Below, one piece after another: positions 35,688 through 37,046 of a DNA stretch of 43,051 nt. The first letter of the stretch is position 1. The number at the start of each line of letters is the position of its first letter. This DNA comes from Escherichia phage ECO104 4-5-2: sequence record OR844702. One strand, 5' to 3'. Under the pieces are notes generated by a model. It made no database searches, was not told where the DNA came from, and was given only the letters and a program-made list of their open reading frames with translations. Both the position numbers and the translations under genes were made by a program.

Positions 35688-37046
35688 ATGGCACTTGTAG
35701 AGAATATCAAAGTAGGTGCATCTAATATAACTATCCGAGACCTGAGCCTACTGGACGTTATCCCAGAATCCCCACTAGACTTCGGAGCACAGCCCGGTAA
35801 TCCGGACTTTGATAGTGGTCCGGCATTAAATGCCTACATAGAGTTTGTGCGTACTAAGTACCGCAGTACGTACTCCCCTAGCAGCAAGGACGACCCTAGT
35901 ATGTTTAACCTACAGGGTAAGTGCATAGACTTGTCGCAAGGCACTTACTATGTTAAAGAGCCTACAATGTTCCTTGACATGTTTGACTACACATTAATCA
36001 ACCCTTCGATTGTAGCCACTGAAGGCTTCCCTGCTGACAAGGCATTGATAGAGTGCAGGTTGGAAGTAGGTACTCGTCCGTTAAACGGTATCCGCATTAT
36101 TAATCCAGTACTGGACGCTAACTGGTTGGCTGAAGGATGTATCCTAGCACATGACTTCTGGAAGATGCCTATCACCGGAGGCGTTTTATCTCGGTATCGG
36201 GCATATGGGGTTAAGACTGACTATGTACAATACCCTCCGCACGAACTGAATATGGCATTCACTCATATAGGTCAACAGCCTGTGTGGGAAGCTAATAAGC
36301 CTGCGGATGTAACTACTGGCACTGCACTGGATATCAACAACTACGACAATAACTTCACCAGTCTGATTATATCTCAACAGTATGGCGATATAGCTCTCCT
36401 GCGCAAGGGGGCCAACGCTTTTAGTAACTGCCACTTCTACCCTAATCAGGAAACGGACACAGAGAAGGGCCGGGTAGTTATTCTGAGTAACGGGGACCAG
36501 TTCAGTAACTGCTACTTTGACGGTTGCAGCGTAGTCTCCTATCAGGACGGTGCTCGCTTTACTATCTCAGATAGTGTGTGGTTACTCCCACGCCATGGGA
36601 TTGCTATTAACCTGTTATCTAACCCTTATCAGGTTAAGGTGCATGACTGCCGCTTCCGCAATACTACAGGAACTACGCTCTCCCAGAGTGTTATTCGTAT
36701 GAAGACTATTGCAGAAGGTCGTACATCTCGTCCGGATATTCAAGGTAACTTCACTGAGAACTGTACTGCTATTAGCACTGTAGGTCGTCAGTTCTATAAA
36801 CTCACCAGCACCGAATCTCAACGCGTAGTTACTATTACTGTACCGGACCAGTACCAGCCTCTGGCTAGCGTGCAGGTACAGGAGAACGTCGGGAACACCA
36901 ATGACGATACATGGCTAGTTAAGGCTCGTATGATTAGTACGTCGCAGGTGCGTATACGTCCTTATAACATGCAGGTAGGCTGGGGTACTACAGCTACTTA
37001 TACAGGAGGTTTAATCCTTACGTACAACCTTACCGGAGATTTATAA
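35688..37046 (+). CDS. Tailspike / putative polysaccharide depolymerase (beta-helix)
   Basis: 452 aa with repetitive beta-helix-like composition (N/G/T/S-rich, periodic hydrophobics) and no gp17-like N-terminal anchor; last gene before the terminal non-coding region, as in KP34-like genomes. Confidence 0.55.
   Translation: MALVENIKVGASNITIRDLSLLDVIPESPLDFGAQPGNPDFDSGPALNAYIEFVRTKYRSTYSPSSKDDPSMFNLQGKCIDLSQGTYYVKEPTMFLDMFDYTLINPSIVATEGFPADKALIECRLEVGTRPLNGIRIINPVLDANWLAEGCILAHDFWKMPITGGVLSRYRAYGVKTDYVQYPPHELNMAFTHIGQQPVWEANKPADVTTGTALDINNYDNNFTSLIISQQYGDIALLRKGANAFSNCHFYPNQETDTEKGRVVILSNGDQFSNCYFDGCSVVSYQDGARFTISDSVWLLPRHGIAINLLSNPYQVKVHDCRFRNTTGTTLSQSVIRMKTIAEGRTSRPDIQGNFTENCTAISTVGRQFYKLTSTESQRVVTITVPDQYQPLASVQVQENVGNTNDDTWLVKARMISTSQVRIRPYNMQVGWGTTATYTGGLILTYNLTGDL

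Follow-up and report, generated by a model that had tools for sequence, protein, structure and literature searches.

An anchor-less tailspike gene behind the endolysin gene of a KP34-like podophage: a predicted beta-helix spike with a probable O-antigen target

The spike gene, its flanks and its partner adaptor

The DNA analysed here (the window, 43,051 nucleotides (nt) from Escherichia phage ECO104 4-5-2, sequence record OR844702) represents the essentially complete genome, in circularly permuted form, of a KP34-like (Slopekvirinae) podophage, and the element under study is the gene at 35688..37046 on the plus strand, which starts with ATG and encodes a tailspike of 452 amino acids (aa), the second receptor-binding protein (RBP2). 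That it is a real gene is indicated by homologues with E values down to 6.9e-282, and a 90%-identical 452-aa copy was found on an independent metagenome contig with the same gap of about 10 nt to the upstream gene. According to gene position, the lack of an anchor, a variant of the conserved N-terminal peptide and the presence of a partner anchor protein, the spike is assigned to the RBP2 class of KP34-type anchor-branch receptor-binding systems, as represented by gp49 (anchor) and gp57 (depolymerase) of KP34, the 'group A KP34virus' system (Latka et al. 2019, PMC6872550; 2026, PMC13352976). Taken as a whole, the product is probably the second, anchor-less receptor-binding protein (RBP) of this podophage, docked on an adaptor and directed at O-antigen.

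The spike gene lies directly downstream of the endolysin gene with a gap of 9 nt between the endolysin stop and the spike ATG, and the Shine-Dalgarno sequence AAGGAG as read from the sequence (35677..35682, plus strand) overlaps the endolysin stop and is followed by a 5-nt spacer. The lysis cassette upstream, also on the plus strand, contains the genes for an Rz-like spanin (34513..34926; phrog_1804, E = 3.4e-43), a holin (about 34910..35158; PF04971 and phrog_20, with the start taken from an 82-aa L008 homologue) and an endolysin of the phage lysozyme family (35136..35678, 180 aa; PF00959 with E = 1.4e-25 and 180-aa homologues). On the 3' side, about 570 nt without credible genes are followed by small early-type open reading frames (ORFs). 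The first 100-150 nt of this spacer contain a conserved non-coding element (37060..37200, no strand assigned; 72-87% identity at the equivalent position in many KP34-like genomes), which lies 100-250 nt from the physical right end in linear KP34-like records, so that 'genome end' is the correct term for the position of the spike gene in this permuted assembly. The minus-strand ORFs within the spike gene (62, 82 and 68 aa) were unsupported and were treated as chance.

The T7 tail fibre N-terminal domain (PF03906) had no Pfam match on the spike at E <= 1 and was detected with 47.6 bits (cut-off 25.2) on the product of 29551..30729 (plus strand), a gp17-like adaptor fibre of 392 aa (RBP1, the first receptor-binding protein). 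The combination of this adaptor with an anchor-less spike behind the endolysin corresponds to the published layout (PMC6872550, PMC13352976) and is shared by PAS7, P64441, Cronobacter phage Peggy and Buco/HRP29 together with 60 further loci. Accordingly, three points of the preliminary description, namely the position of the spike after the lysis cassette at the genome end, its lack of a gp17-like N-terminal domain that is instead carried by 29551..30729, and a two-component arrangement typical of KP34-like phages, were borne out by the spanin-holin-endolysin order with the conserved right-end element, by the PF03906 results and by the published and shared layout, respectively.

The identity of the adaptor is supported by homology to Gp44 of Shigella phage HRP29/Buco (8es4_G; E = 8e-92 over residues 1-238), the N-terminus of which has been modelled in the cryo-electron microscopy structure of the HRP29/Buco tail (PDB 8es4), and to the 307-aa 'tail fiber gp9' (23sh_r; E = 2e-82); a 95%-identical adaptor copy is present in a related metagenomic phage. 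Four parts were distinguished in the adaptor model: a gp17-type N-terminal domain, a short coiled coil, a confident beta-sandwich at residues 160-220 and a long helix at residues 233-290. Residues 1-150 (29551..30000, plus strand) represent the T7 gp17-type tail anchor, and residues 155-232 (30013..30246, plus strand) the beta-sandwich as the candidate branching domain for the spike peptide. By profile search, the sandwich region matched the N-terminus of a phage K64-1 depolymerase, and its equation with the T4 gp10-like branching domain of KP34-type adaptors is suggestive only. Residues 233-392 (30247..30726, plus strand) form a coiled-coil extension that resembles the tail needle gp26 of the P22 type and has phmmer matches to 4zkp, 2poh, 3c9i and 5bu8 (E about 1e-8) and to phrog_1219 ('tail needle protein'). 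Because of this needle-like extension, the adaptor, which is longer than that of KP34, may also be a short fibre in its own right. The extension comprises 160 residues with a long coiled coil and the motif NSDITSLTGL...GGTG...AAGARSNLGL; it is common to Cronobacter phage Peggy and a metagenomic relative and mostly absent from the 307-aa adaptors of KP34 and the 260-aa adaptors of HRP29.

The first nine residues of the spike, MALVENIKV (35688..35714, plus strand), constitute its putative docking peptide. In KP34-like phages, the gp17-like anchor protein is encoded five to eight genes from a depolymerase that is conserved only in the heptapeptide MALxxLV (PMC6872550), and this peptide has been shown by experiment to be the docking element for the branching domain (PMC13352976). 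The motif was analysed in 71 related loci from a viral contig collection and in annotated relatives. Sixty of the loci have an ORF (452-690 aa) whose start is only a few nt away from the endolysin stop, and these ORFs represent 56 distinct sequences in 29 body clusters without mutual similarity. Among the 29 cluster representatives, Leu was found at position 3 in 90% and at position 6 in 69%, and position 7 was hydrophobic in 90%; conservation was confined to positions 1-3, 6-7 and 9 and fell to the background level beyond position 9. The window peptide, with Asn as its sixth residue, agrees at positions 1-4, 7 and 9 and is thus, from the alignment, a recognisable variant of MALxxLV and no exact match; the same MxLVxNIxV variant is present in phiKDA1, P64441 and one metagenomic phage.

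In the DNA of related phages, the endolysin 3' end and stop, the ribosome-binding site, the start codon and about nine spike codons are conserved and identity then collapses, which places the module boundary at that point. In the metagenomic phage with the adaptor 95% identical to that of the window (97% in the branching domain), the spike is an unrelated protein of 561 aa starting with MALVSLVEG. Since near-identical branching domains thus occur with two peptide variants, MALVENIKV and MALVSLVEG probably serve the same socket and are interchangeable; covariation between the peptide variant and the branching domain was set aside on the basis of the same 97%-identical domains.

In front of the beta-helix, a linker motif, P..DW[VI]CVGYL......[NF][YF]GA.P, was noticed in the spike homologues P0002-P0012 with any N-terminal module (alignment columns about 470-500) as well as in the unrelated spike of a sister phage (L007:15782-17467), and looks like a shared junction for module exchange. 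Residues 10-34 of the window spike are a divergent version of it.

The nearest annotated relatives of the whole genome are Escherichia phages PAS7 (Cepavirus, Slopekvirinae) and P64441, Enterobacter phage phiKDA1 and many Klebsiella phages. Over long stretches, the window is 100% identical to an unannotated contig from wastewater, which bears the name 'UNVERIFIED_ORG: Salmonella phage S.Kent 1-2-1', and the same phage sequence (99.9-100% identity) was found in OR850875, OR846963, OR848465, OR844859 and related records. These records come from one wastewater study, are low-coverage assemblies marked UNVERIFIED_ORG and are named as Salmonella, Listeria and several E. coli phages. Their host labels are unreliable, and a KP34-like podophage of Listeria is not credible.

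Fold and family of the spike body

The structure of the spike was predicted as a monomer with AlphaFold2 on the basis of 16 homologues (mean pLDDT 86.8, pTM 0.83). In the model, disordered residues 1-18 are followed by a short helical cap, many short strands (about residues 70-360) and a beta-sandwich (about residues 366-446), and phage tail fibres and spikes were the top matches when it was compared with viral models by Foldseek. The spike is therefore modelled as a right-handed parallel beta-helix (pectin-lyase-like) protein with a C-terminal beta-sandwich; the helix body extends over residues about 27-360 (35766..36767, plus strand), with residue 27 as the point where homology of the mobile module begins, and the sandwich, assigned from the AlphaFold2 secondary structure and conserved in all homologues, over residues about 366-446 (36783..37025, plus strand). 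The right-handed beta-helix proposed beforehand was thus recovered in both the AlphaFold2 model and the Foldseek comparison. The spike gave only a weak, sub-threshold 'tail spike' match in PHROGs and no meaningful match in a sequence search of the PDB; as no solved relative of the body exceeds 15% identity, fold comparison alone was informative.

The residues N139-P140, D143, N145-W146, D156-F157, P184-H185-E186, N188, D220-N221-N222, N247, H249-F250-Y251, D270, C275-Y276-F277-D278 and R322-F323-R324 are invariant in 16-17 homologues and spaced at roughly one coil, the pattern expected of a groove along one face of a beta-helix. Of these, E186, D220, D270 and D278 stand out as putative catalytic carboxylates.

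The body family is a very rare one without a characterised member, as judged from sequence collections: the spike matched only 15 clusters in an index of 5.8 billion proteins, and exhaustive HMMER searching over 1.84 billion representatives gave 32 matches at E <= 1e-3 and 13 at E <= 1e-10. In a scan of species representatives (185,579 genomes) for the body, none of 198 pattern matches was confirmed, one genome per species being a sampling that misses rare prophages. The close homologues (497-733 aa) all align from residue 27 to the C-terminus, without gaps in P0001 and P0004 and with one gap in P0010, and are longer than the window spike through differing N-terminal modules, namely those of the TSP1/gp66 type (PF18668), the P22 head-binding type (PF09008) and the T7 gp17 type (PF03906). 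More distant copies of the body (about 34% identity) are found in Aeromonas phage tail fibres. P22 head-binding, T7 gp17 and TSP1/gp66 N-terminal modules belong to trimeric spikes, and since the body is fused elsewhere to such modules, it is very likely trimeric by analogy.

Of the 56 spikes encoded at this position, the window spike (452 aa) is the shortest by a small margin (460, 480, 494 and up to 690 aa for the others). The lack of an N-terminal module accounts for its shortness in full, the protein being a body of about 425 aa at full length plus a 26-residue N-terminal segment, and this body aligns free of gaps to anchor-carrying homologues of 620-730 aa. In the preliminary description, the shortness had been taken as a sign that the specificity may be unusual; the shortness was correct and the inference from it was not, because a full-length body that aligns free of gaps gives no clue to specificity through its length. 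The specificity may be unusual after all on another ground, that is, because the family is rare and uncharacterised. A metagenomic protein of 6424 aa (P0136) matched the spike in 55 separate stretches, the best one at residues 196-251 with YDNN...NCHFY coils, which suggests a giant protein of many copies of this beta-helix coil unit.

Target polysaccharide and mode of action

The target was approached through a survey of 5426 complete E. coli genomes. The body module was present in eight of them, located in P22-like prophages, and in every case the annotation is that of a phage head-binding-domain protein. A single genome, strain fECg99.1 (WP_227533676), carries the P0004 type with 63.5% identity to the window body, and seven (JNE181771, JNE170426, 2014C-4587 and others) carry the P0010 type with 53.6% identity, the two subclades sharing only 62% identity. 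In fECg99.1, the O-antigen cluster (galF-gnd) contains six genes and no sugar-nucleotide pathway genes, and it is 99.9-100% identical in 11 other genomes including those of JNE181771 and JNE170426, two strains of the atypical serogroup OX18 for which commercial O1-O188 antisera give no agglutination (PMC8084502). The OX18 cluster was thereby found in 12 of the 5426 genomes, and in six of the eight lysogens (hypergeometric P = 7e-16).

The prophage lies about 60 kb from the O-antigen cluster in two genomes and about 1.3-1.4 Mb from it in JNE170426, LR-51 and 23-AB02114 (OX18) and in Ec40743 (O28ab), and in fECg99.1 it is located at the bio locus and carries the other body subclade. Judged by coordinates, at least three prophage configurations exist, and together with the two subclades in OX18 strains these argue for repeated acquisition of the module by OX18 hosts. 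The presence of both 62%-identical subclades in OX18 strains also argues that specificity can outlast divergence like that between the window spike and either subclade. At the one prophage locus that was examined (P0010 type), genes for an Acyl_transf_3 protein and an integrase come after the spike gene, by analogy a layout typical of serotype-converting P22-like phages. Strain Ec40743 (L086, NZ_CP041919.1 1776001-1797000) combines a P0010-type spike with an O28ab-type O-antigen cluster; its stretch from cpsG to ugd (wcaJ, wzxC, galF, O-antigen genes, gndA) has consecutive, strain-specific protein accessions, which would fit a recombinational O-antigen switch after lysogeny.

In the proposed mechanism, the spike would form a trimer, its N-terminal peptide would dock on the beta-sandwich branching domain of the adaptor (residues about 155-232), and the adaptor would be held on the tail by its T7 gp17-type N-terminus. 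The beta-helix would then bind the host surface polysaccharide, probably cleaving it as an endoglycosidase, and bring the tail to the outer membrane. The polysaccharide would most likely be the lipopolysaccharide (LPS) O-antigen of an E. coli-like host, plausibly that of OX18 or one of related structure. For an OX18-like target, a hydrolase is likelier than a lyase by inference only, on the ground that the OX18 cluster lacks uronic-acid or special sugar pathway genes; a literature search for the chemical structure of the OX18 O-antigen did not find it.

Several observations weigh against this interpretation. The docking peptide has Asn in place of the consensus Leu at position 6, as do three other spike types, and the Pfam Beta_helix family (PF13229) was matched by the spike only below threshold (21.1 bits with a gathering cut-off of 25.9). 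The spike was modelled as a monomer, and the trimer, docking and catalysis are proposed; the fold decides neither between hydrolase and lyase nor between cleaving and binding only. With regard to OX18, the strains are partly clonal and the P value of 7e-16 thus overstates independence. Three further points bear on the serogroup and are equally the evidence for a spike directed at the O-antigen of another serogroup (other E. coli, Salmonella or other enterobacterial) after drift of its specificity. The window body is only 54-64% identical to the prophage spikes, at which distance specificity could have shifted; two of the eight lysogens are not OX18 (Ec40743 with its O28ab cluster, and PM22, which matches neither OX18 nor O28ab); and identical phage DNA was obtained from wastewater enrichments on several unrelated hosts and labelled as Salmonella, Listeria and E. 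coli phage, which leaves the host uncertain. Such a non-OX18 spike is a possibility to be kept in mind, opposed by the finding that both of the subclades with 62% identity occur in OX18 strains, and the assignment to OX18 specifically is accordingly a tentative one. It is on the doubtful side that the body family as such is a small group of uncharacterised O-antigen endoglycosidases specific for OX18. A target in the capsule (K-antigen) of an encapsulated host, with the spike as a depolymerase like that of Klebsiella phage KP34, was implied where the preliminary description named capsule-targeting phages. The arrangement is known best from phages of Klebsiella that degrade capsules; the implication is probably wrong here, and the capsule is regarded as an improbable target. 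Sequence searches found no homologue of the body in Klebsiella phages, and where the context of homologues is known, it is only that of E. coli phages or prophages or of Aeromonas phages. Moreover, the P22-like carriers of the body, the adjacent gene for an O-antigen acyltransferase and the OX18 association favour O-antigen, and the nearest phage relatives use O-antigen spikes: that of PAS7 is predicted to be O103-specific (PMC11522302), and HRP29 infects one Shigella flexneri serotype and has as its gp52 an Sf6 endorhamnosidase body without a head-binding domain. On these grounds, an O-antigen target and not a Klebsiella-type capsule is considered likely.

The spike could also act by binding only, or could modify the polysaccharide (e.g. 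as a deacetylase) without cutting the chain, and the fold by itself would allow this. Such a mode of action is judged quite unlikely, since the invariant D143, E186, D220, D270 and D278 follow each other at about one-coil spacing, like a conserved active-site groove, and since no SGNH or esterase domain was detected in the spike by Pfam. Glycanases also make up the majority of the characterised spikes with this fold and gene position, which speaks in the same direction. As for attachment, the adaptor's own needle-like coiled-coil extension of 160 residues could make 29551..30729 an independent fibre, with the spike fixed directly to the virion (e.g. to the nozzle or the tail tube). The likelihood of this is very small. 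In KP32, RBP2 no longer functions in the virion once the conserved peptide is deleted or the branching domain taken away, and the RBP1 anchor domain was regarded by the authors as the sole attachment to the virion (PMC13352976); in HRP29, gp44 and gp52 are handled as one tail protein complex; and the window spike has only a conserved N-terminus of nine residues and no recognisable tail-binding domain. Docking of the spike on the adaptor is thus the preferred mode of attachment.

The architecture is textbook for KP34-like phages and the finding mostly confirms an expected gene, the body being a new, uncharacterised member of the beta-helix tailspike class. One body is used with four attachment solutions (a nine-residue peptide, a P22 head-binding domain, a T7 gp17 anchor and a TSP1/gp66 N-terminus), and the sharp recombination boundary in the DNA makes the gene a clean natural example for plug-and-play host-range engineering. 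Shiga-toxin-producing E. coli of OX18 have caused fatal haemolytic uraemic syndrome and are untypeable by commercial antisera (PMC8084502). If the spike recognised OX18, a link that is inferred, it would be a compact typing or decolonisation tool of 452 aa, and if the body proved to be OX18-specific, the lytic phage would be a reagent for recognition or degradation in an emerging Shiga-toxin-producing lineage.

Other genome features and comparison with known systems

Two group I introns were detected in the window with Rfam. The one in the large terminase gene, terL (31046..33123), belongs to RF00028 (65.4 bits, E = 1.6e-14, match at 31551..31804) and extends over 31616..31866 (251 nt) without an ORF; the 5' exon ends in T and the intron in G, and splicing at 31615/31867 restores a terminase of 608 aa, 597 residues of which are identical to the product of the uninterrupted gene in the related phage with the 95%-identical adaptor. 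The second intron (3356..4042, 51 bits, just over the 50-bit threshold) lies in the gene for a family A DNA polymerase and carries an ORF for an HNH homing endonuclease (3468..4010, PF13392); exon 1 ends near ...TTGRLSASNP, and the downstream part (4097..5026) matches PF00476. Between the terminase and lysis genes, a repeat-like ORF rich in Thr, Ser and Val (33282..33938, 218 aa) showed weak similarity in PHROGs to a 'virion structural protein' and to proteins without known function. Relatives have an ORF of varying length at this position, with 263 aa in L007 and 393 aa in Peggy, and its product may be a decoration or minor fibre protein.

With KP34, the window shares the order of genes, in that the gene for the gp17-like anchor follows those for the internal virion proteins and the spike gene is the last large gene, after that for the endolysin. 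The two proteins are alike as well, the anchor through PF03906 and a beta-sandwich branching domain (suggestive in the window) and the spike through a short N-terminus of the MALxxLV type only.

The 'hybrid' T7/Sf6 tail of HRP29/Buco (gp44 and gp52, PDB 8es4) contains the closest solved adaptor, Gp44, which has 260 aa and differs from the window adaptor in lacking the coiled-coil extension. HRP29 gp52 (508 aa) is a P22-like (Sf6) spike body without the head-binding domain, and stands to the Sf6 spike as the window spike does to the E. coli prophage spikes. It differs from the window spike in a body of another family (Sf6 endorhamnosidase type) and in its N-terminus, MAAVSSLTKLIRQ; among the PDB chain sequences gp52 itself is absent and only Sf6 spikes match.

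PAS7 and P64441 are the two nearest annotated E. coli relatives. PAS7 (Cepavirus) has the same layout, with an anchor-less spike of 480 aa (WMX18832) starting with MSLVSLV, and is unlike the window in an unrelated body from a separate cluster and in the predicted serogroup (O103). For PAS7, the body was already described as exchanged horizontally with spikes of Uetakevirus and Kayfunavirus (PMC11522302).

The spikes of the P22-like prophages in OX18 strains share the receptor-binding module of the window spike along about 425 residues, with the C-terminal sandwich included. They differ from the window spike in a P22 head-binding N-terminus of about 205 residues, compared with a peptide region of 26 residues in the window, and in belonging to temperate phages with serotype-conversion genes. 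Finally, the same body is present in QUR34677 (712 aa) of P762 (Kayfunavirus), with 55.6% identity over residues 27-451, where it is fused to an N-terminal module in the gp17 position and thus represents a one-component arrangement, in contrast to the two components of the window; a metagenomic homologue, also of 712 aa (P0011), carries PF03906 at its N-terminus.

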